From contig OZ245033.1 of the NCBI GenBank assembly GCA_965224025.1, positions 128,001 through 192,000 on the forward strand: 64,000 nucleotides of DNA, read 5' to 3'. How positions within the stretch are numbered: position 1 is the first letter of the stretch; each line of letters begins with the position of its first letter. This DNA comes from Candidatus Multivorans sp. Lineage in GTDB: Bacteria > Acidobacteriota > Thermoanaerobaculia > Multivoradales > Multivoraceae. Below the pieces are notes generated by a model. That model made no database searches and was not told the origin of the DNA. It saw only the letters and a list, made by a program, of their open reading frames with translations. The position numbers were made by a program, and so were the translations under genes. Of this stretch, positions 1 through 11,124 are shown piece after piece.

Positions 1-1509
1 GGACCAACCCCAGTGGATGCCCCGGCGCCGCACTTCCCCATGCCGGTGGGTGAGGTGGGAAAGGTGGTTCGGCAGCACCAGCATGGACTCGATCAACGAG
101 AACGCCAGGCAGCCGATGACGACCAGGGGAATCGTCCGCGCGATCGCCGCCGAGGGGCCCTCCATCGAGTAGATCAGCGGCGAGAAGGCGGCCACCGTGG
201 TGAGGATCGAGAACGTGACCGGCGTCGCCACCTGCCGCGCGCCGTCGACCGCCGCGCGCATGCCCCGCTTGCCCATCTCGAAGTGGCGGTAGATGTTCTC
301 GCCCACCACGATCGCGTCGTCAACCACGATCCCGAGTACCAGGATGAACGCGAACAGCGACATCACGTTGATCGTGACGTCGACGTACGGCAGCACGGCG
401 AGCGCGCCCATGAACGAGACCGCGATGCCGACGGAGACCCACAGGGCGAGCCGGAGCTTCAGGAACAGCGCCAGCACCAGAAACACGAGCAGGAGGCCCA
501 ACCGTCCGCTCTCGAGCAGCACCCGCAGCCGGTCCTGGAGCGGCACCGAATCGTCGAGCCAAGTCGTCATCCGCAGGCCCGGCGGCAGGGCCGCCGACCG
601 CTCCGCGATGAAGCCCCTGACCTGGCGGGAAATGCGCAGGGCGCTCTGATCGCCGACCCGGTAGACCTGGACCAGGGCGACCGGCTGGCCGTCGAACCGC
701 GATGTCACGTCCGTCTCGGCGAAGCCGTCCGTCACCCGCGCAATGTCGCCCAGTACGAGCCGGCTACCGTCGGGCCGCGCCCTCAGCACGATGCCCCCGT
801 ACTCGGCGCCCCGGTATGCCTGCCCCATCGTGCGCAGGAGGATCTCGCCCTCGCGCGCTCTGACCGCGCCGCCCGGAAGATCGAGCGATGACCGCCGCAC
901 CGCCAGCACGACCTCGTCGAAGGTGAGGCCGTACTGCCGGAGCGTGTCCTCCGAGACCTCGATCGAGATCTCGTAGGGCCGCACCGCGTCGAGTTCCACC
1001 TGGGTGATGTCGGGGAGTTCCGAGAGGCCCTCGCGCACCTGTTCCGCGACCGCCTTGAGGGCGCGTTCCTCCACATCGCCGTAGACCGCCACCGTGATCA
1101 CCCGGCGACGAATGAGCGCCTCCTGGATGATCGGCTTCTCGGTCTCTTCGGGAAAGGTCGTGATCGCATCGATCCGGGACTTGACCTTGTCCAGCACCTC
1201 GCGGGTGTCGGCGTCGCTTTCCAGTTCGATGACCACGGTGGCGACTCCCTCCGCCGCCGTGGACCGGACCGTGTCCACGCCTTCCAGGTCCTGCACCGCC
1301 TCCTCGACGCGCAGGCAGACGCCCTGCTCGACCTCCTCCGGCGCCGCGCCCAGGTAGGGCACGGTCACCGTGATGCTCTGGGTCTCCAGGCTCGGGAAGA
1401 CCTCGATCGGCATACCCGTCATGGCGAGCAGACCCCAGACCACGATGAAGACCATCAACAGGTTCGCCGCCACGCCGTTGCGGGCAAACCAACCGATCAC
1501 GGCGCTCAC
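1..1509 (-). CDS. RND efflux transporter permease subunit (AcrB/AcrD/AcrF family), 5' part; runs off the window's left edge
   Basis: Missing from the ORF track because there is no stop codon in the window. Manual translation from GTG 1509 gives MSAVIGWFARNGVAANLLMVFIVVWGLLAMTGMPIEVFPSLETQSITVTVPYLGAAPEEVEQGVCLRVEEAV, a typical RND N-terminus. GTGA overlap with the adaptor stop codon. Confidence 0.93.
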   Translation of the reverse strand, partial: MSAVIGWFARNGVAANLLMVFIVVWGLLAMTGMPIEVFPSLETQSITVTVPYLGAAPEEVEQGVCLRVEEAVQDLEGVDTVRSTAAEGVATVVIELESDADTREVLDKVKSRIDAITTFPEETEKPIIQEALIRRRVITVAVYGDVEERALKAVAEQVREGLSELPDITQVELDAVRPYEISIEVSEDTLRQYGLTFDEVVLAVRRSSLDLPGGAVRAREGEILLRTMGQAYRGAEYGGIVLRARPDGSRLVLGDIARVTDGFAETDVTSRFDGQPVALVQVYRVGDQSALRISRQVRGFIAERSAALPPGLRMTTWLDDSVPLQDRLRVLLESGRLGLLLVFLVLALFLKLRLALWVSVGIAVSFMGALAVLPYVDVTINVMSLFAFILVLGIVVDDAIVVGENIYRHFEMGKRGMRAAVDGARQVATPVTFSILTTVAAFSPLIYSMEGPSAAIARTIPLVVIGCLAFSLIESMLVLPNHLSHLTHRHGEVRRRGIHWGWS

Positions 1510-3110
1510 GGCGCGCCGCCGCGCAAGCGCAGCCGCAGCCCCGCAGGATCCGCGATCGGCGCCACGTCGCCCGCGGCGGCGCCGTCGATGACCACGCGGG
1601 TGACCGGGTCCGCGCCGCCGCGGAACTGGCCGACACGGACCGAGCGCGCCGGCGAGCCGCCGGTTGCGCCTCCGTCACCGCCCTGATCCACGCCGACCAG
1701 GGTGTTCGAGACGCGCATCACGCAACCCGAAAGGTCCACCACGTAGCGCGGTGGATCGTCCAGCCAGAACGTCCGGTAGACGGGTTCGCCGCCGGCGCGG
1801 AGCAGCAGGTCGACGTACCCCGCGCCACGCTCCAACTCGACGCCGGTGAGGACGCACCGGTCAGTCTTCGGCTCGTCGGCGACGGCGCGCACAGCCAGGG
1901 CTGCGGGCGTCGACTCCACGGAGCCGGTCGCCGACGAAGCGGCCGCGGGCGCGGGCGCTGCCACGGGTACCGGCTCCAACTCCGGCGTCACCAGCATGCC
2001 GTCCACGGCCGTTTCAAGAATCGTCAAGCTGATCCGATCCCCGCTCACCAGGCCGTCGGAGACGATCGCGACGTCCGGGTCCGAGCGCAGAATCCCGACC
2101 TGACGCAGGGCCAGCCGATCGTCCTCGACCAACCACAACCGGTCCGCTCCGACCAGCGCCCCGCGCGGCACCTCGAACACGGAGTCGACCGAACGGCCGA
2201 CCACGTCCGCGTCCACGAACAGACCCACCGACAACGGCGGGCGGCCGGAGGCAGCCCGGTACGGGTCCTCGACGCGGGCGATCAAGTTCACCATGCGCGT
2301 CGCCGGGTCGATCTCGCCGCCGACGCGGACGATCCGGGCCTCCCACTCATGCCGTCCGCCGGCGAACTGCGCCTGCAACAGGACCCGCGGCCCGGCGCCC
2401 CGCAGTTCCGCGCCCAGCGGCAGGTCGAGAAAGGCGAGTTCCGAGTCGGGTACCGGCAGCGTGACCTCCGCAGCGTCGACGGAGTAGATCGTTGCCAGGG
2501 GCACGCCGCGGTTCACGAACTCGCCGCGGTCGACCCGCTTGGCGCGCAGCCGGCCCGCGAACGGCGCCCGGATCGCCGTTCGCGAAAGATCCAGCTCGGC
2601 GCGCGCCTGGTTCGCCAGCGCGGCCTCCACGCGAGCCCTCGCCTCGTCCAACTGGGGCTCGCGGAGCACCAGGGGTCCGGGTTCGCCGGGCTCCTCGAGA
2701 TCCTCCCATTCCTCCCGCGCGACTTCGGCCTCCGCCTCTTCCCGTGTCAGCGCGACCCGCGCCTGCGCCACGGACGCCCGGGCACTCGCGACCGCCAGTT
2801 CGTAGTCGCGGCGGTCCAGGCGCAGCAGCACGTCGCCGGTGTCGAAGAAGCCGCCAACCTCGAAACTCTCCGCCACCCAGACGATGTTGCCGGCGACCTC
2901 CGACACCAGGTCCGCCTCGGTCGCCGGGATCACCGATCCCTGCGAACGCACCCGCAACTCGACCCGGGTCGGCTCCACGGTCACCACCCGAACGGGAGGC
3001 GGCGCGATCTGGCGCGGCGCGGTCTCCACCGCCGGCCGCGACCCGACCAGAGCCACGACGATCACTACGGCGACGGCCAGGATCGCGACAGGCAGGATCC
3101 ACTTCAGCAC
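1506..3110 (-). CDS. RND efflux periplasmic adaptor (membrane fusion protein) with extra C-terminal AMIN-like domain
   Basis: N-terminal TM anchor, lipoyl/hairpin motifs (SEVAGNIV, GDVLLRLD, IRAPFAG, IDPATRMV), then an Ala/Pro linker and FWLDDPPRYVVDL...VRVGQF...TRVVID. Confidence 0.9.
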   Translation of the reverse strand: MLKWILPVAILAVAVVIVVALVGSRPAVETAPRQIAPPPVRVVTVEPTRVELRVRSQGSVIPATEADLVSEVAGNIVWVAESFEVGGFFDTGDVLLRLDRRDYELAVASARASVAQARVALTREEAEAEVAREEWEDLEEPGEPGPLVLREPQLDEARARVEAALANQARAELDLSRTAIRAPFAGRLRAKRVDRGEFVNRGVPLATIYSVDAAEVTLPVPDSELAFLDLPLGAELRGAGPRVLLQAQFAGGRHEWEARIVRVGGEIDPATRMVNLIARVEDPYRAASGRPPLSVGLFVDADVVGRSVDSVFEVPRGALVGADRLWLVEDDRLALRQVGILRSDPDVAIVSDGLVSGDRISLTILETAVDGMLVTPELEPVPVAAPAPAAASSATGSVESTPAALAVRAVADEPKTDRCVLTGVELERGAGYVDLLLRAGGEPVYRTFWLDDPPRYVVDLSGCVMRVSNTLVGVDQGGDGGATGGSPARSVRVGQFRGGADPVTRVVIDGAAAGDVAPIADPAGLRLRLRGGAP

Positions 3111-3112
3111 GT

Positions 3113-4624
3113 CTAGCCTCCGCCGCCCGTGGCTGCGGCCGCCGCGACCGGTTCCGGATAGACGCCCCCACCCAACGCCAGAATCAGGTCCGTCCGCGAT
3201 TCGAGTTGCTGCCGGCGAGCGGCGAGCAACTGGCTCTCCGACTGAAACGACGTCCGTTGACTGTCGAGTACCTGCAGATAACCGACAAGGCCCTGCCGGT
3301 AGCGGCCCTCGGTCAGGCGTTCCGCCTCCCGGCTCTCGGTAGCCGCCCGCTCCAGCGCCCCCGCCCGCTCCGCCAGCATCCGTTCCGCCACGAGACCCGA
3401 CTCCACTTCGGCGAAGGCCGCGAGCGCCGTCTGCAACCAGTTCGCCTCCGCCGCGTCGAGACCGGCAGTCACCAGATCCAGCCCGGCCCGTAGGCGGCCG
3501 CCCGAAAGCAGGGGTTGCAGCAGTCCGGCGGCGAGACTCCAGACCGAGAAGTCGCCATCCAGCAGGTCGCTCAGAGAACCACTCGACGTGCCTGACGATC
3601 CGTCCAGTCTGAAGGTCGGGTAGAGAGAACGGCGGGCGGCGCGAATCCGCTGCGACGAGGCGATCGCGCGGTACTCCGCGGCCCGCAGGTCCGGACGGCG
3701 CGCCAGCAGGTCGGCCGGCACACCGGTCTCGGGCAGCGGCGGCAGATCGGGAAGGCCCGCGGCCGCCTCGATCTCGCCGGCCGGATAGCGGCCCAGCAGC
3801 ACCTCCATCTGCCGGCGCAGGCCGTCGAGCGTCTGCTTCTGCGCCGCCAGCGAGGCCTCGACGGTCGCTATCTGAGTCCGTGCCTGCCGCACCTCGAGCG
3901 CGGTCGCCACGCCCCGCCGGTAGCGGGCCTCGACCCGATCGCGCGTCCGCTCGCGGCTCGCCAGAGTGCGCTCCAGGAGTTCCACCTGTTGCATGGCCTC
4001 AACGACGCCGAAGTACACCTTCGCGACCTGGCCGGCGATCGAGAGGCGCGCCCCGGCGAAGTCGGCTTCGCCCGCCGCCGCCTCAGCCAGCGAGGCTGCC
4101 GTGAGGGCGCGGAGCCTCCCCCACAGGTCGACCTCCCAGCGGATGTTCAGGGACAAACCGTAGCTGGTGAAGGCGAAGCTGCGCACGCCGCCGGGCTCGA
4201 AGCCCGGAATCGGGATCGCCTCGGTCAGGCCGCTCTGGGCGGTGTTCTGCTTGCGCCGCCCAGGGTCGAGCGCCGCCTCCAGCTCCGGTCGCCGAGCCGC
4301 GCCGTCGAGCCGGGCCTGAGCGAAGGCCGCCTCGACATTCGCGGCCGCGGCACGCAGGCTCGCGTTGTGCTCCAACCCCTCTACGATCAACCCCGACAGC
4401 AACGGATCGCCGAAGTCGCTCCACCAGTCCGATGCGACCTGCGAAGAACCGGCCGGCGCCTTTGCCGCGCCCGCTACCTCGCCGTACTCGGCCGTCGCAG
4501 GCGCTTCCAGGGCCGGCGGACCCGTGCCCACGGCGCTGCAACCGAGCCAGAGGATCGGGGCGGCAACCAGCGGCAGCGACCAGCGCATCCGGCCCTGGAC
4601 GCCACCATGAAGGGGAACCATCAT
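3113..4624 (-). CDS. Outer membrane efflux lipoprotein (TolC/NodT/OprM family)
   Basis: Lipobox-like LWLGC, WWSDFGDPLL, WEVDLWGRLR, PADLLARRPDLRAAE, ALGGG C-terminus. Start could be a few codons later. Confidence 0.93.
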   Translation of the reverse strand: MMVPLHGGVQGRMRWSLPLVAAPILWLGCSAVGTGPPALEAPATAEYGEVAGAAKAPAGSSQVASDWWSDFGDPLLSGLIVEGLEHNASLRAAAANVEAAFAQARLDGAARRPELEAALDPGRRKQNTAQSGLTEAIPIPGFEPGGVRSFAFTSYGLSLNIRWEVDLWGRLRALTAASLAEAAAGEADFAGARLSIAGQVAKVYFGVVEAMQQVELLERTLASRERTRDRVEARYRRGVATALEVRQARTQIATVEASLAAQKQTLDGLRRQMEVLLGRYPAGEIEAAAGLPDLPPLPETGVPADLLARRPDLRAAEYRAIASSQRIRAARRSLYPTFRLDGSSGTSSGSLSDLLDGDFSVWSLAAGLLQPLLSGGRLRAGLDLVTAGLDAAEANWLQTALAAFAEVESGLVAERMLAERAGALERAATESREAERLTEGRYRQGLVGYLQVLDSQRTSFQSESQLLAARRQQLESRTDLILALGGGVYPEPVAAAAATGGGG

Positions 4625-4719
4625 CGTTTGTTGTGGGTACGGACAATCGACCCGGGAGTTCGACGCCGAGCCGAGACTACTAGCCGGCCGCCGGCCGGGA
4701 ATCAGTTAGCGTCATCGCG

Positions 4720-5808
4720 ATGGTTACCGAGGATCGCGCCGGCAACCCGCCTTCCGGACACCGCCGCGTCGACCGGCAGCTCAAGCTCGACCTGATCGAG
4801 GCCGCGGTGCGCGAGAACGAGGCCCAGCTTGGCCGGCAAAGCCCCGAGCACGCGGAGAACGACAGCCCGAAACACCGCCGGCGGCGCCGTTTCTCGCCCT
4901 GGAGCCTGCTCCTGCTGGCGCCGATCGCCGGTACCGCCGGACTCGGCTACCTGGAGCTGAAGCGTCCCGGAGCGGACATCCAACCCGATCGGCCCGTCGA
5001 GGCAACACAGCCGGCGCCCGAAGTGCTCTTCACCGAGCCACCGGAGCCTCTCGACCTCAGCGTCTTCCCTCTGCCCATCAAGAGGATCGTGCTCGATCCG
5101 GGCCACGGTGGCGCCGCCTCCGGCACGGTGGCCGGAGGCCTGACCGAGAAAGACCTCGCGCTCGACATCGCCCGTCGGGTGCGCGAGCTGCTGTCCGACC
5201 GGTACCGCGTCGCGATGACCCGCGAGGCGGACATCGACGTCGAACTCGATCGCCGGTCCGGCATCGCCAACCGGGCCGGGGCCGACCTGTTCGTCTCGAT
5301 TCACGTGAACTGGCTGACGCGGAATCAGAGCTGCGGCGTCGAGACCTACTTCCTCGGCCCCACAGACGACCCCGAGCTGACCGCACTCGCCGAACGGGAG
5401 AATGCCGAGGCGCACGGCTACTCTCTGGCCGACCTGCGCCGCCTCCTCGACGGCGTCTACGCACAGGCCATGCAGGACGAAAGCCGGACTCTCGCCAACG
5501 CGGTTCAGGACGCCCTGTTCGAACAACTGCGGACATCGAATCCGGGCCTGCGGAATCGCGGCGTGAAGTCAGCGCCCTTCGTGGTCCTGATCGACGCCGA
5601 GATGCCGGCCATCCTGGCCGAGGTGTCCTGCCTTTCGGACGCCGGCGAGATCGACCGGCTGCGCGAGAGCGACTACCTCCAGTCGATCGCCGAAGCCCTC
5701 GACACGGGCATCCGGAGCTACGCCGACTCGCTTCGCCTGCGGGCCGAGCCGCCGGCAGAGGACGCGGCGCTAAGCTCCGCGGCTTTGGAGATCAGGGAAG
5801 AGCAGTGA
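4720..5808 (+). CDS. N-acetylmuramoyl-L-alanine amidase (Amidase_3), membrane-anchored, no AMIN domain
   Basis: Zn/catalytic motifs IVLDPGHGG, EKDLAL, FVSIHVN, AILAEV; regulatory-helix-like LAERENA; hydrophobic segment after RRRRR at about aa 58-78. Confidence 0.92.
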   Translation: MVTEDRAGNPPSGHRRVDRQLKLDLIEAAVRENEAQLGRQSPEHAENDSPKHRRRRRFSPWSLLLLAPIAGTAGLGYLELKRPGADIQPDRPVEATQPAPEVLFTEPPEPLDLSVFPLPIKRIVLDPGHGGAASGTVAGGLTEKDLALDIARRVRELLSDRYRVAMTREADIDVELDRRSGIANRAGADLFVSIHVNWLTRNQSCGVETYFLGPTDDPELTALAERENAEAHGYSLADLRRLLDGVYAQAMQDESRTLANAVQDALFEQLRTSNPGLRNRGVKSAPFVVLIDAEMPAILAEVSCLSDAGEIDRLRESDYLQSIAEALDTGIRSYADSLRLRAEPPAEDAALSSAALEIREEQ

Positions 5809-6839
5809 GCAACACCACATCCAACGGAGGAGTCCTCAAGGTCGGAATCGACCTGGGGACCTCGCGGAGTTCGATCTCGGCCGCGAACGGCCAGCGCCAC
5901 ATGGTGCAGAGCTACGTTGGCTGGCCCCGCGACATGGTGGCGAGGAAGGTGCTCGGACGCGACGTGCTGGTCGGCGCCGATGCACTGGAGCACCGCCCCA
6001 TGCTCAACCTGCGCCGGCCCCTGGAGCGGGGTCTGATCAAGGAGGGATCGGTCGAGGACGAGAAGGCAGTGCGCGAACTCGTTCGCCGGCTGCTGGAACT
6101 CGCGGCGCCCGGCGGGCCCGGGCCGGCGCCCGCGATCCACGCCGTCGTCGGCGTTCCCGCCGAGACGCTCAGGGTCAACCGCCAGAACCTGCGGCGCATT
6201 CTGACCGGCCAGGTCGCCAACACGATGATCGTCTCCGAACCGTTCGCCGTCGCCTACGGACTGGATGCCCTGCTTCACACGATGGTCATCGACATCGGCG
6301 CCGGCACGACCGACTTCTGTGTCTTGATGGGCCGCTTCCCGACCGAGGACGATCAGCGCACCCTGAGCGCCGCCGGCGACGCGGTGGACCGTCACCTGCA
6401 CGGCCTGATCGAAGAGCGCTACCCCGACGCCTCGGTGTCCATCCACATGGTGCGGGCCTGGAAGGAACGTCACTCCTTCGTCGGCGAGGGCGCCCCGGTG
6501 GTGGTCGCCGCGCCTGTGCGCGGCAAGCCGACGCGCATCGACATCACCGAGCCCATGCGGCGCGCCTGCGAGAGCCTGCTGGAGCCCTTGCGCGAGACGA
6601 TGCTGGACCTCATCGCAAGGGTCGAACCCGAGTACCAGAGCCGGATCCGCAACAACGTGATCCTCACTGGCGGCTCCGGCCTGATCCGCGGCCTCGGCGC
6701 CGAGCTGCAGCAGGCCCTCGGCGAACTCGGCGGCGGCCGCGTACGCGTGGTCAAGGATCCGGTCTTCGTCGGCTCGGACGGCGGCCTGAGCCTGGCCAGG
6801 GACGTCGACGACGAGTACTGGAAGCGCCTCTCCGCCTAG
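5805..6839 (+). CDS. MamK-type actin-like ATPase
   Basis: Actin motifs GIDLGTS, VSEPFAVAYG, IDIGAGTTD, LTGGSGLIRG, plus MamK-like segments SYVGWPRD, FPTEDDQRTL, KERHSFVG, EPEYQ, VKDPVF, EYWKRL. GTGA overlap with the amidase. Confidence 0.88.
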   Translation: MSNTTSNGGVLKVGIDLGTSRSSISAANGQRHMVQSYVGWPRDMVARKVLGRDVLVGADALEHRPMLNLRRPLERGLIKEGSVEDEKAVRELVRRLLELAAPGGPGPAPAIHAVVGVPAETLRVNRQNLRRILTGQVANTMIVSEPFAVAYGLDALLHTMVIDIGAGTTDFCVLMGRFPTEDDQRTLSAAGDAVDRHLHGLIEERYPDASVSIHMVRAWKERHSFVGEGAPVVVAAPVRGKPTRIDITEPMRRACESLLEPLRETMLDLIARVEPEYQSRIRNNVILTGGSGLIRGLGAELQQALGELGGGRVRVVKDPVFVGSDGGLSLARDVDDEYWKRLSA

Positions 6840-6862
6840 CTTCGGTTGCACCCGCCCGCTTC

Positions 6863-7090
6863 GGGGCTCCGGGGGAGGTCTCCCAGGTGCCGTGCCATCC
6901 GTGCGCCCGATGACGGGCGCACGGACTGGTTCACGGGTGGCGCGGATCGCGCCACCCGGGTTCGCGCTTGGTCGGCTTGCGAACGGGGGTGCGCTCACTG
7001 CACTACGCTCGCTCCGGCTGGGCGTCCGTTGACGTCAGGTCGTCGGGCGTCGCTCGCTCCGAGCCACCTGGGAGCCTCCCCCGGAGCCCC
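6863..7090. repeat. Intergenic element bounded by ~27-bp inverted repeats (MITE/REP-like)
   Basis: 6863-6889 ggggctccgggggaggtctcccaggtg is the reverse complement of 7065-7090 except for a 1-nt indel. Internal direct repeat cgctcgctccg at 7006 and 7051. Confidence 0.65.
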
Positions 7091-7165
7091 CGTGCTGGCT
7101 GGACACCGTCGTTCCACCGTTACCACCGCGCGGAACCCATGGCGGTGGGGACGGACCTCAGCGCT

Positions 7166-7960
7166 TCACTTTGTCGCGCCGTTCGGCCTGCGGGCGGGCG
7201 GGCCTGGCAGCAACGTCGCCAGCTCGGTCAGGTCGGCCACCTTGGGGCAGTCGACCTCCGGCCAGTCGTTCCATGGATCGAGCAGAACGGCGTGAACGCC
7301 AGCGGCCCGAGCGCCTACTACGTCGGCCGCATAGAGGTCGCCAACGTGAACGGTGCGCTCCGGCCGGGCGCCGATCGTCTTGAGAGCGGCTTCGAAGACT
7401 CGCGGATCGGGCTTCTCGAAACCGACCGTCTTCGAGTCGATCAGAGCGTCGAAGAGCGGGCCGAGCCCAATCGACTCAACGTTTCGCTTCATGCTGCCGT
7501 CGGAGTTGCTGACCACGGCCATGCGATAGCCGAGCGAGCGGATCCGCTCCAGCGCCTCCTTCCTTCCTGGCAGTCGCCGGTTCCAGAGTAGTTCGTTCCG
7601 GCCGGGCACGTAGAGGCGCTGCGCAAGCCCGGAGGCCATGCCGGCAAGCTCGACGCCATCGAAGCAGGCAGCCGGCAGTCGGTCCAGGATCGCCTCCAGA
7701 TAGAAGCGGAAGGTGGACCCGCCCTCAGTCGACTGCAACTCCGCCGACAGGGCCGCCGAGATATCGGGCCGGGCCGCCGCTTCCGCGCGCTCCAACTGGC
7801 GCCCGGAGCAATCGAGGCCCAGGTCCGACGCGACCTCGGCGATGCGCTCGAAGTTCATGGACAGGAAGGTGTTTCCCGCGTCGAAGAAGATCGTGTCCAG
7901 TTCTACCCAGGGCACGTCGCGCGGCGGCGTCATGTTCGTCACGGCGTCGTAGTCTGCCAT
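7166..7960 (-). CDS. HAD-superfamily hydrolase
   Basis: Motifs FFDAGNT, VVSNSD, EKPDPRVF, HVGDLYAADVVGA. Start ATG 7960 (or 7933). Confidence 0.9.
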   Translation of the reverse strand: MADYDAVTNMTPPRDVPWVELDTIFFDAGNTFLSMNFERIAEVASDLGLDCSGRQLERAEAAARPDISAALSAELQSTEGGSTFRFYLEAILDRLPAACFDGVELAGMASGLAQRLYVPGRNELLWNRRLPGRKEALERIRSLGYRMAVVSNSDGSMKRNVESIGLGPLFDALIDSKTVGFEKPDPRVFEAALKTIGARPERTVHVGDLYAADVVGARAAGVHAVLLDPWNDWPEVDCPKVADLTELATLLPGPPARRPNGATK

Positions 7961-8037
7961 CAGGCGCGATCGTCTATTCTCAGCACCCACACGGGCGGGA
8001 CGCGCGTGCCGCCGGACCGGCACACCGGAGGACGATC

Positions 8038-9899: not shown

Positions 9900-10703
9900 T
9901 CAACGATTCCGCGTCAACGGCACAAACCGCACCGGGATCACGCGGGTTCGCTCCACCTCTCCGTCGGCCTTCTTCTCCAGCACCTGGAGTTCCTGGCGGC
10001 CGCCCCGCGGTCCCATCGGCAGAACGAGCCGGCCGCCGGTCGCCAACTGCTCGATCAGCGGCCGCGGCACGTGGTCCGGCGCCGCCGTGACGACGATCGC
10101 GTCGAACGGCGCCTCGTCGGGCCAACCGGCGTAGCCGTCGCCGATCCGGGTCGTCACGTTCTCGTACCCGCCCATATCGAGCGCCGCCGCCGCCCGCAGC
10201 CCCAGGGGCTCCACGATCTCGATCGTGTACACGTGATCCACGATCTCGGCCAGCACGGCGGCCTGGTAACCCGAGCCGGTGCCGATCTCGAGCACCTTGT
10301 CCCCCGCGTCGGGCACCGCAAGCTCGGTCATCAGCGCCACGATGTACGGCTGCGAGATCGTCTGCTGCCAGCCGATTCCAAGCGGCGAATCGCGATAGGC
10401 CCAGTCGCGTATCTCCTCGGGAACGAACAGGTGACGCTCTACCTTCTCCATCGCGCCGATCACCCGGACGTCAAGCACCGGCGGGCGGCCGTCGCGGGGC
10501 TCGGCGATCGTGTCGCGCACCATGCGCCGCCGGAGTTCGGCGAAGTCCACCCGTTCCTGGGCCGACACGGTCGAGCCCGCGAACCCCATGACTGCTGCTG
10601 CCGCAACCCCGAGCCGCCAAGCCGGGCTCGAACCGCGCCGGAAGCCCGCGTGTAGCCTTCGCAGGCTCTTGCCGACACCGCCGCCAACCGAGATCCGCGT
10701 CAT
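9900..10703 (-). CDS. pcm: Protein-L-isoaspartate(D-aspartate) O-methyltransferase with signal-peptide-like N-terminus
   Basis: QTISQPYIVALMT, VLEIGTGSGYQAA, GDGYAGWP, APFDAIVVTAA, VRFVPL. ATG 10703 follows a GGGAGAG RBS. Confidence 0.9.
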   Translation of the reverse strand: MTRISVGGGVGKSLRRLHAGFRRGSSPAWRLGVAAAAVMGFAGSTVSAQERVDFAELRRRMVRDTIAEPRDGRPPVLDVRVIGAMEKVERHLFVPEEIRDWAYRDSPLGIGWQQTISQPYIVALMTELAVPDAGDKVLEIGTGSGYQAAVLAEIVDHVYTIEIVEPLGLRAAAALDMGGYENVTTRIGDGYAGWPDEAPFDAIVVTAAPDHVPRPLIEQLATGGRLVLPMGPRGGRQELQVLEKKADGEVERTRVIPVRFVPLTRNR

Positions 10704-10729
10704 CGTCTCTCCCGTCACTCCCGCCGTCA

Positions 10730-11124
10730 GTCTGTGGAACCGACCGGGCCTCCAAGCGTACATGGGGTCATGGGCCTGCTCGAGCGCCGGCTTCGCCATG
10801 CAGCAGCTCCTGCAGGTCTGGCTGCTGGCGGGCGTACTTCCAGCATCTTCAACGCCGGCGCCTTCCTGACCGTGTTCCCCTTCATCGTCCTTCGCGTCTA
10901 CGAGGGCGACGCGGAACTCCTGTCCTGGCTGATGATCGTCTTCTTCGCGGGCGCTGTCGTCTCCAATCTCCGGCCGCGTCATGTCCGTCTTCGGCCTCGG
11001 CCTGCTCGGCGGCTCGCTGATCGGCGCCCTCGCCGGCCTCGTCCCCGGCATGGCTGCCTCGGTGCTGCTGTTCGTGTACAGCATGGCGGCAACCGGGCTG
11101 TGGCGGTATCGGAGTTCACCGTAG
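10730..11124 (+). pseudogene. MFS transporter relic with large internal deletions
   Basis: Three fused pieces in different frames: LWNRPGLQAYMGSWACSSAGFAMQQLLQVWLL; SIFNAGAFLTVFPFIVLRVYEGDAELLSWLMIVFFAGAVVSNL; GRVMSVFGLGLLGGSLIGALAG...LWRYRSSP*. Confidence 0.65.

Follow-up and report, generated by a model that had tools for sequence, protein, structure and literature searches.

A conserved gene pair of a predicted membrane-anchored cell-wall amidase and a MamK-family actin in Acidobacteriota

Bacterial actins serve wall synthesis (MreB), cell division (FtsA), plasmids (ParM) and magnetosomes (MamK). The placement of wall hydrolases is far less understood and is known mainly from periplasmic targeting domains and from the FtsEX-EnvC switch. 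Here we describe a gene pair of Candidatus Multivorans sp. (Acidobacteriota; assembly GCA_965224025.1), in which the gene for an N-acetylmuramoyl-L-alanine amidase of the Amidase_3 family (4720–5808, plus strand), predicted to be a single-pass membrane protein with a cytoplasmic N-terminus, is directly followed by the gene for a MamK-family actin-like ATPase (5805–6839, plus strand). Coordinates refer to the window, which is the whole stretch of 64,000 nucleotides of contig OZ245033.1 that was analysed (C1:128001-192000). What is new is a very widespread and tightly conserved pair in which the hydrolase itself seems to be equipped with a tag for docking to a cytoplasmic filament. The pair points to an undescribed route by which the cytoskeleton could steer wall remodelling in many non-magnetic bacteria.

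The closest solved relative of the window's actin is MamK of Magnetospirillum (5jyg, 5ljv). The two proteins have the same nucleotide-binding motifs and fall into the same superfamily in our tree. Unlike MamK, the window's actin is encoded outside a magnetosome cluster, does not share a clade with the Magnetospirillum-type representative P0153 and scores below the NCBIfam cut-off for MamK. The partners of MamK are MamJ and other magnetosome proteins, whereas the fixed partner of the window's actin is the amidase.

MamK-like actins outside magnetotactic bacteria have been described as BeeR (Verrucomicrobiota), Bbp (giant bacteria) and saltatorellin (Saltatorellota), and the main texts of the reports leave their cellular role unassigned. 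BeeR is a MamK-like actin of non-magnetic bacteria, for which a disordered N-terminal domain of approximately 35 residues is named as a hallmark (PMC11929497). The window's actin lacks such a domain, and BeeR forms a separate basal clade. The Bbp operon of giant bacteria comprises a second gene and a Kelch-like protein and differs in this from the amidase-actin pair (PMC10580974). Filaments in E. coli have been reported for saltatorellin, which is also MamK-like (bioRxiv 10.1101/817700). The word "amidase" does not occur in the main texts of these three reports. We found no literature linking a MamK-type actin to an amidase, and the supplementary trees of PMC11929497, PMC10653835 and PMC10580974 may include the clade studied here.

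Other systems are comparable in design. In the elongasome, a submembrane MreB filament is tied to wall enzymes via the cytoplasmic part of the single-pass protein RodZ. MreB guides synthases, whereas the direct partner here is a hydrolase, and the genome has a separate mreBCD. In the ParM-ParR system, a short helical peptide of the partner enters the cleft between the two halves of the actin, and the contacts predicted here are of the same kind. However, there is no sequence relation to ParM-ParR, the peptide comes from the N-terminus of a membrane enzyme and not from the tail of a DNA-binding adaptor, and the genes are located on a chromosome and not on a plasmid. FtsEX-EnvC likewise couples a cytoplasmic ATPase across the membrane to an amidase with a blocking helix, AmiA or AmiB (PMC10268282), and the corresponding insert is kept in the window's amidase. 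In contrast to FtsEX-EnvC, the ATPase of our pair is an actin and not an ABC transporter, the link would be the anchor and tail of the enzyme itself and not a LytM activator, and the predicted contact implies no activation mechanism.

A two-gene unit of amidase and actin

The open reading frame (ORF) of the amidase has an ATG start and a TGA stop and encodes 362 residues, and that of the actin has a GTG start and a TAG stop and encodes 344 residues. The two genes overlap by GTGA (5805–5808, plus strand), as an earlier sequence-only reading of this DNA had noted; the GTG of the actin gene lies over the TGA of the amidase gene. A purine-rich stretch is located immediately 5' of this GTG. The arrangement suggests translational coupling of the two genes via the overlap. 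The source genome comprises 5.14 Mb in three contigs and is rated 100% complete with 5.66% contamination. The G+C content around the pair is 64–72%.

A genome collection was scanned with a 16-relative alignment, and 574 of the 598 candidate stretches were confirmed. The following counts refer to the best 80 of these. The amidase gene is located directly upstream of the actin gene on the same strand in 79 of the 80 Acidobacteriota loci, with gaps of 0–222 nt between the BLAST hits and an actin identity of 61–96%. We also evenly drew a sample of 401 Acidobacteriota genomes, in which the actin was called at E ≤1e-60. It was found in 30 genomes: 10/10 for the window's genome and its genus, 7/8 for the rest of the order, 8/21 for the rest of the class and 5/362 for other classes. 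All 30 have the amidase directly upstream. This phylum sample is not independent of the 80-locus set because it was drawn from the same species genomes.

An independent scan of metagenome contigs was performed with P0124, the representative of a sister clade, as the query. Confirmation succeeded for 208 of 308 stretches, and 80 were kept. The sister-clade actins are 46–53% identical to the window's actin, and wherever the upstream sequence spans 700 nt or more (67 loci), the amidase is directly upstream. Six of the other 13 loci have an amidase clipped at the contig edge, and seven are too short to judge. The named sister-clade proteins come from metagenome-assembled genomes of Desulfobulbaceae, Syntrophobacteraceae, Defluviicoccus and Hyphomicrobium. 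Together, the two clades comprise at least several thousand actin sequences.

Absence, too, is shared by the two genes. In relatives of the same class without the actin, the best amidase is 36–43% identical, is encoded in a frame of 527–930 residues with a long periplasmic N-terminal part, and lacks the N-terminal motif described below (5/5 genomes, a count that takes in the unpublished genome G024 and is 4/4 without it). The window's genome has two more Amidase_3 genes (L084, G000:C1:581706-585488; L085, C1:2256410-2260177), which encode long periplasmic N-terminal parts, one of them with LysM. L084 is built like the amidases of the actin-less relatives, in that its periplasmic N-terminal part is long and the motif is missing. 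When the ORFs within 5 kb of the 80 loci were clustered, the actin was present in 80 loci and the amidase in 79, and the next cluster occurred in at most 17 loci. Because only the actin and the amidase are shared across the loci, and because they are present and absent together, the two genes form a module that is either mobile or retained independently. The linkage from which the sequence-only reading had started is thus conserved in each of the three data sets.

Architecture of the two proteins and their predicted contact

Amidase_3 (PF01520) is the sole domain found in the amidase (residues 123–332, E 6.1e-43, 147.3 bits against a threshold of 27). The AlphaFold2 (AF2) model has a mean predicted local distance difference test (pLDDT) value of 79.5, with helices at residues 19–38 and 60–80 and a confident domain at residues 122–342. 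The protein is composed, in this order, of a poorly conserved start, the helix 19–38, a disordered acidic stretch, the basic cluster KHRRRRR (51–57), an uncharged stretch (58–78), a linker and the catalytic domain. The helix (19–37), Arg cluster, hydrophobic stretch (F58–L78) and intact Amidase_3 domain that the sequence-only reading had described were all borne out.

The N-terminal helix (residues 17–38; 4768–4833, plus strand) is the predicted actin-docking peptide, as judged from the alignment, the AF2 model and the co-fold contacts. It carries a motif of 13 residues, which in the numbering of the window's protein is K22-x2-[LIM]-[LIV]-x2-[AVL]-[VY]-x-[ED]-N33-[LV]; the first position is K or R across both clades. 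Outside the catalytic domain, N33 is the sole residue that is invariant in the 40-row alignment, in which K22 and V30 each reach a conservation of 90% or more. The motif starts approximately 5–10 residues from the protein start in most amidases. It is present in 71/71 assessable loci of the genome-collection set, of which 8 more lost this region at contig ends and 1 has no amidase. The phylum sample gave 28/29 assessable loci with the motif. In the sister clade, a regular expression detected it in 55/57 assessable loci, and the two misses (L153 and L185) are variant forms by eye.

The basic cluster K51–R57 and the hydrophobic stretch F58–L78 (4870–4953, plus strand) were assigned from the translation and from the AF2 helix 60–80. 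Across the relatives, the median distance from the motif to the hydrophobic run is 20–23 residues, with a median of 7 Lys or Arg residues. The uncharged run has a median length of 21–22.5 residues, and the best 15-residue Kyte-Doolittle means are 2.16 and 2.51 in the two clades. The stretch is therefore long and hydrophobic enough for a membrane span, which speaks against a cleaved signal. According to the positive-inside rule, basic residues before a helix keep the N-terminus in the cytoplasm, and the layout of the amidase fits this rule. We infer a single membrane anchor with the N-terminus in the cytoplasm. The putative periplasmic linker that follows (residues 81–121; 4960–5082, plus strand) is variable, with pLDDT values of 51–71 and a gappy alignment. 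The distance between the hydrophobic run and the catalytic domain is 29–79 residues in the Acidobacteriota clade and 43–119 residues in the sister clade.

We co-folded the actin (16-row alignment) with residues 1–60 of the amidase (40-row alignment) in three runs and with three controls. Each of the runs reached a score of 0.78, which is the model's own confidence, whereas the controls gave 0.01, 0.00 and 0.00; at least 75% of the contacts were common to the runs. On the amidase, the contacts involve residues 17–18, 21–22, 24–30, 32–34 and 36–37, which coincide with the motif; the tightest pairs are formed by K22, I26, A29, V30 and N33. On the actin, they involve residues 123–130, 140–143, 151–157, 176–178 and 330–342. 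In the actin fold, these residues correspond to the C-terminal helix and to the hydrophobic cleft that separates subdomains IA and IIA. The motif is thus predicted to dock on the actin. A contact through the cytoplasmic N-terminus, which had been proposed from the sequence, gains support from the conserved motif and from a co-fold model that passes its controls.

The catalytic domain (residues 122–342; 5083–5745, plus strand) was delimited by invariant columns, by the alignment to AmiC and by pLDDT values that are mostly above 90. H129, E143, H195 and E301 are invariant across both clades in the alignment of 40 sequences, and the zinc His/Glu/His set and the catalytic Glu of the family are present. 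The closest solved relatives by sequence are E. coli AmiC (4bin, E 7.3e-23) and AmiA (8c2o), which are also the top Foldseek matches. The catalytic fold and the zinc ligands are conserved with E. coli AmiC, AmiA and AmiB, although the scores for the corresponding NCBIfam equivalogs miss the cut-offs (AmiA, 90.2 against 400 bits; AmiB, 65.8 against 532; AmiC, 88.4 against 700). Unlike the E. coli enzymes, the window's amidase has no AMIN domain detectable by Pfam, and the cytoplasmic motif and the membrane helix take the place of a plain export signal. A further difference is the invariant N197 (5308–5310), which replaces an Asp: the protein has an H-x-N triplet where AmiC has H-A-D.

Residues 213–254 (5356–5481, plus strand) form a regulatory insert. 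This segment aligns unbroken with AmiC, AmiA and Bartonella AmiB, whereas the alignment to the insert-less Nostoc AmiC2 (5emi) is split into two pieces around it. The AF2 model has helices at residues 218–228 (putative blocking helix) and 236–243 (putative interaction helix). E227 and N228 are invariant in the 40-row alignment, and E227 pairs with chain position 285 of AmiC (4bin), which we take to be Gln299, the latch of AmiC. By the insert, the Glu at the latch position and the two helices, as seen in the alignment and the AF2 model, the protein belongs to the regulated amidases of the AmiA/AmiB/AmiC type. In the division amidases, a Glu of the blocking helix latches onto the zinc, and the interaction helix is gripped by the LytM activator (PMC10268282). 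Because of its invariant catalytic residues and its AmiA/B/C-type insert with E227, the window's amidase appears to have an intact catalytic site and to be autoinhibited. Asp135 of AmiA is a zinc ligand in the resting state and is released on activation (PMC10268282); the Asn in the H-x-N triplet could therefore change the switching of the enzyme.

The actin (5805–6839) was assigned to the MamK family by NCBIfam, by its match in the PDB and by the invariant nucleotide motifs. The NCBIfam MamK model (NF040964) matches with 360.3 bits over positions 1–331 of 335, which is below the cut-off of 400 and leaves the protein outside that subfamily; the sister representative P0124 scores 425 bits and P0153 scores 508 bits. 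The top solved match is Magnetospirillum MamK 5jyg (E 5e-79, 269 bits, residues 11–342), ahead of BeeR 8r2n (2.4e-42) and MreB (8.3e-11). Its scores are far from the thresholds for MreB (PRK13927, 50.1 against 293 bits; TIGR00904, 39.1 against 365.75 bits), and the Pfam MreB_Mbl match of 57.7 bits was put down to the common fold only. The protein does not belong to BeeR either, with 209.6 bits against a cut-off of 530 and only 10 residues before the core. The nucleotide-binding motifs D16–S20, D163–D170 and G289–G290 as well as E145 are invariant in 16 relatives. E145 aligns with MamK residue 143, presumably the residue mutated in the ATPase-dead form. As a member of this family, the actin is expected to polymerise into filaments in an ATP-dependent manner. 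All the actin segments named by the sequence-only reading occur in the translation, and its statement that they match MamK better than MreB was confirmed by the far stronger MamK match.

Homologs for a tree were searched among 1.84 billion cluster representatives, of which 167 matched at E ≤1e-30. We built a quick maximum-likelihood tree, supported by the Shimodaira-Hasegawa-like approximate likelihood ratio test (SH-aLRT) only, with 78 rows: 67 full-length representatives, 9 amidase-linked actins, the query and the genome's own MreB as the outgroup. Fragmentary sequences, 83 of the 150 listed representatives, were kept out. The amidase-linked actins of Acidobacteriota form one clade (12 rows, support 100) with P0124 as its sister (support 98). 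A separate clade of 13 rows (support 98) contains P0153, whose match to Magnetospirillum MamK 5jyg reaches 463 bits. P0128, P0133, P0137 and P0124 were rejected as stand-ins for Magnetospirillum MamK because they reach only 214–313 bits to 5jyg. The basal BeeR clade is marked by P0229, which matches 8r2n with 567 bits, and the neighbouring P0129 clade belongs to Planctomycetota. The deeper branches have a support of 81–91 or are unresolved. By PDB E-values, tree and invariant motifs, the actin is a member of the MamK superfamily in fold and sequence and lies outside MreB.

Many representatives (P0135-P0157, P0175, P0183 and P0192) are long proteins of 523–1232 residues with a C-terminal MamK-like domain. 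Their N-terminal parts are charged and rich in Lys, Glu, Pro, Ala and Ser, and 14 of these proteins form a clade of their own (support 99). The acidic parts rich in Pro, Ala and Glu remind us of MamJ-like linkers. No amidase or other Pfam domain was found in the N-terminal parts of the 10 proteins that were scanned. Therefore, these fusions were set aside as uninformative with regard to amidase coupling.

The genome also has a separate canonical mreB-mreC-mreD set from C1:1134605 onward, away from the actin gene, and its mreB product matches Pfam MreB_Mbl with 472 bits. The sequence-only reading had found no mreCD, parR or mam genes adjoining the pair; this holds for mre, par and mam genes in general, as the neighbours are an RND efflux operon and a gene for an HAD hydrolase. 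Three magnetosome families were searched for in the genome: MamP reached 34.8 bits against a cut-off of 300, MamQ reached 75.7 against 250, and MamI had no match, which is weak evidence because the MamI search matched none of 14 control genomes, none of which is known to carry MamI. With such neighbours and with no match above the cut-off among the three families, the actin is not a MamK in the strict sense of a magnetosome-cluster actin. The sequence-only reading had proposed a non-magnetotactic or ancestral role of the MamK clade. The former is upheld by the searches for MamP, MamI and MamQ. The latter is unsupported, and because the deep branches are weakly resolved, the tree gives no verdict on whether the amidase link predates the magnetosome role.

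Proposed mechanism and alternatives

The explanation that we favour, with moderate confidence, is a cytoskeleton-tethered and separately gated wall amidase encoded by a two-gene operon. The product of the first gene would be held in the inner membrane by one helix, with its first ~40 residues in the cytoplasm, and its catalytic domain would reach the peptidoglycan on the flexible linker. The MamK-family actin encoded by the second gene would polymerise in the cytoplasm. The amphipathic helix 17–38 is predicted to dock in the actin cleft formed by the strand and helix at 140–157, the loop at 176–178 and the C-terminal helix at 330–342. By this docking of the tail, the filament or the filament end would fix the position of the amidase in the membrane. 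The amidase itself would be switched off by the AmiA/B/C-type blocking helix (E227) and would probably need a separate LytM-type activator. In such a device, the filament would determine where the wall is cleaved, and the activator would determine when. The purpose may be cell separation or local wall opening.

If the mechanism is true, it would assign a function to many proteins whose present annotation is "rod shape-determining protein" or "MamK family". It would also reveal a new way in which autolysins are controlled in space and offer a fresh angle on the origin of the magnetosome cytoskeleton. The 13-residue tag makes the mechanism directly testable. A wider claim can be made only tentatively, and we consider it rather doubtful: the large MamK branch of Acidobacteriota, Desulfobacterota and other phyla may be a wall-cutting device, in which a dynamic filament carries, clusters or moves an anchored amidase via the 13-residue tag. 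It would be the first case of a bacterial actin with a wall hydrolase as its direct cargo. MamK-type actins would then not be primarily magnetosomal, and the magnetosome MamK would be one specialised offshoot of a wall-associated cytoskeleton.

Several observations weigh against the tethering mechanism. One actin, at locus L019:1-2997 of Candidatus Multivorans thiocomprendens, has no amidase in the 1995 nt upstream or in the rest of the 12997 bases. The amidase of L103 (G176:C31), the exception in the phylum sample, is the only assessable amidase with Asp in place of the motif Asn. No LytM activator in the module and no conserved neighbour hinting at the process was found in the 80 loci. In the co-fold model, the partner has a pLDDT of only 54. 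Peptide-in-cleft actin complexes of the ParM-ParR type have been solved; therefore, a part of the co-fold pass could reflect likeness to them. Since actin-like filaments also use this cleft for their longitudinal contacts, binding of the tail may be restricted to monomers or to a single filament end, which would fit nucleation or capping better than lateral tethering. The actin contact positions are no more conserved than the average (0.64 against 0.69). Positions 142, 157, 177, 334 and 338 of the actin differ between the clades alongside a change from A-V to V-Y in the motif, but this co-variation was set aside as evidence since it represents one phylogenetic split and is not statistical.

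The alternative that survives best, which we consider unlikely, reverses the direction of the anchor. Here, the amidase would mainly be an adaptor: its periplasmic domain would grip the peptidoglycan while the protein tethers the filament to the envelope or nucleates it there, and wall cleavage would be secondary or absent. The real cargo or task of the filament would lie elsewhere, e.g. in the chromosome, an organelle, polarity or cell shape. The contacts at 140–157 and 330–342 match the cleft that ParR-type end-binding adaptors use on ParM, and the conservation of the pair fits this alternative equally well. The apparent autoinhibition of the amidase and the invariant N197, which replaces the Asp that binds zinc in resting AmiA, are also in its favour. 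However, the invariance of H129, E143, H195 and E301 in both clades is that of a working enzyme, and no conserved candidate for a cargo gene is located nearby.

A second alternative, which we also consider unlikely, concerns the topology of the amidase. The hydrophobic stretch would be a cleaved Tat (twin-arginine translocation) or Sec signal, and the actin would bind the N-terminus of the precursor and decide the time or place of export; the exported enzyme would be unattached in the periplasm. Tat export is known for E. coli AmiA and AmiC. Twin arginines occur within 12 residues before the hydrophobic run in 61/70 Acidobacteriota and 33/56 sister-clade proteins, and an A-x-A site is present in 30/70 of the Acidobacteriota forms, which are Ala-rich. 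The stretch of the window's protein is moderately hydrophobic, with a best 19-residue mean of 1.57 (taken from L003, which is 91% identical and has the same stretch). Because twin arginines are frequent and A-x-A occurs in 30/70 proteins, we leave some probability to Tat export or cleavage of the N-terminus, and these counts stand against the membrane anchor of our mechanism. In contrast, the run lengths and 15-residue means given above are long and hydrophobic for a Tat signal, A-x-A occurs in just 4/56 sister-clade proteins, and 23/56 of them have no twin arginine.

It is also improbable, in our judgement, that the two proteins share a process and are co-expressed without touching each other. 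The co-fold result would then be a false positive, and the motif would have another binding partner, such as a regulator, a division protein or the membrane. In the calibration of the co-fold, the mark was reached by 58/80 solved complexes and by 2/110 mismatched pairs, counts that hold only roughly because our own alignments were used in the co-fold. False positives thus do occur, and the low pLDDT of the partner and the unremarkable conservation of the actin interface point in the same direction. On the other hand, all three controls scored 0.01 or lower, the confident contacts coincide with a motif that was defined independently, and the two genes occur jointly and are missing jointly. The remaining possibility, a true MamK left from or part of a magnetosome cluster, has in its favour that MamK is the closest solved relative and that NCBI labels some sister-clade proteins "MamK family actin-like protein", but it is largely refuted and very improbable, since MamP, MamI and MamQ gave no match above the cut-off in a genome rated 100% complete (with the MamI blank being weak), the Magnetospirillum-type MamK, labelled via P0153, belongs to a separate clade (SH-aLRT 98), and none of the 80 loci has a mam-like neighbour.

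Flanking DNA

Upstream of the pair, an RND efflux operon is encoded on the minus strand, with genes for an outer-membrane factor (3113–4624), an HlyD-type adaptor (1506–3110) and an AcrB-type pump (1–1509). The intergenic region of 95 nt (4625–4719) between the divergent outer-membrane efflux gene and the amidase gene presumably contains the promoters of both genes. A scan with the sigma-70 consensus gave no promoter site in 4625–4719. Downstream, the gene for the HAD hydrolase (7166–8023) is convergent with the actin gene.

Two perfect GC-rich hairpins are located at 6898–6958, 60–120 nt past the actin stop, with stems of 12 bp (inverted repeat I3, 6898–6925) and 11 bp (I4, 6934–6958). They are enclosed by imperfect inverted repeats of 28 nt (6851–6889 and 7065–7102). 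The hairpins possibly mark the transcript end; no terminator was called at them, they have no T run, and no Rfam match was obtained at E ≤0.1. An ORF of 149 residues at 6846–7295 has no Pfam match and is not among the 15 most widespread neighbour clusters.

Farther downstream, the ORF at 9900–11084 (minus strand, 394 residues) has a protein-L-isoaspartate O-methyltransferase domain only at residues 205–393. Its first ~200 residues have no Pfam match, and the start of the ORF may be overcalled. The HlyD-type membrane-fusion protein of the efflux operon (1506–3110, minus strand) has an AMIN domain near its C-terminus (residues 424–512, Pfam E 9e-06); AMIN is more familiar as a domain of septum-targeted amidases and pilus secretins.

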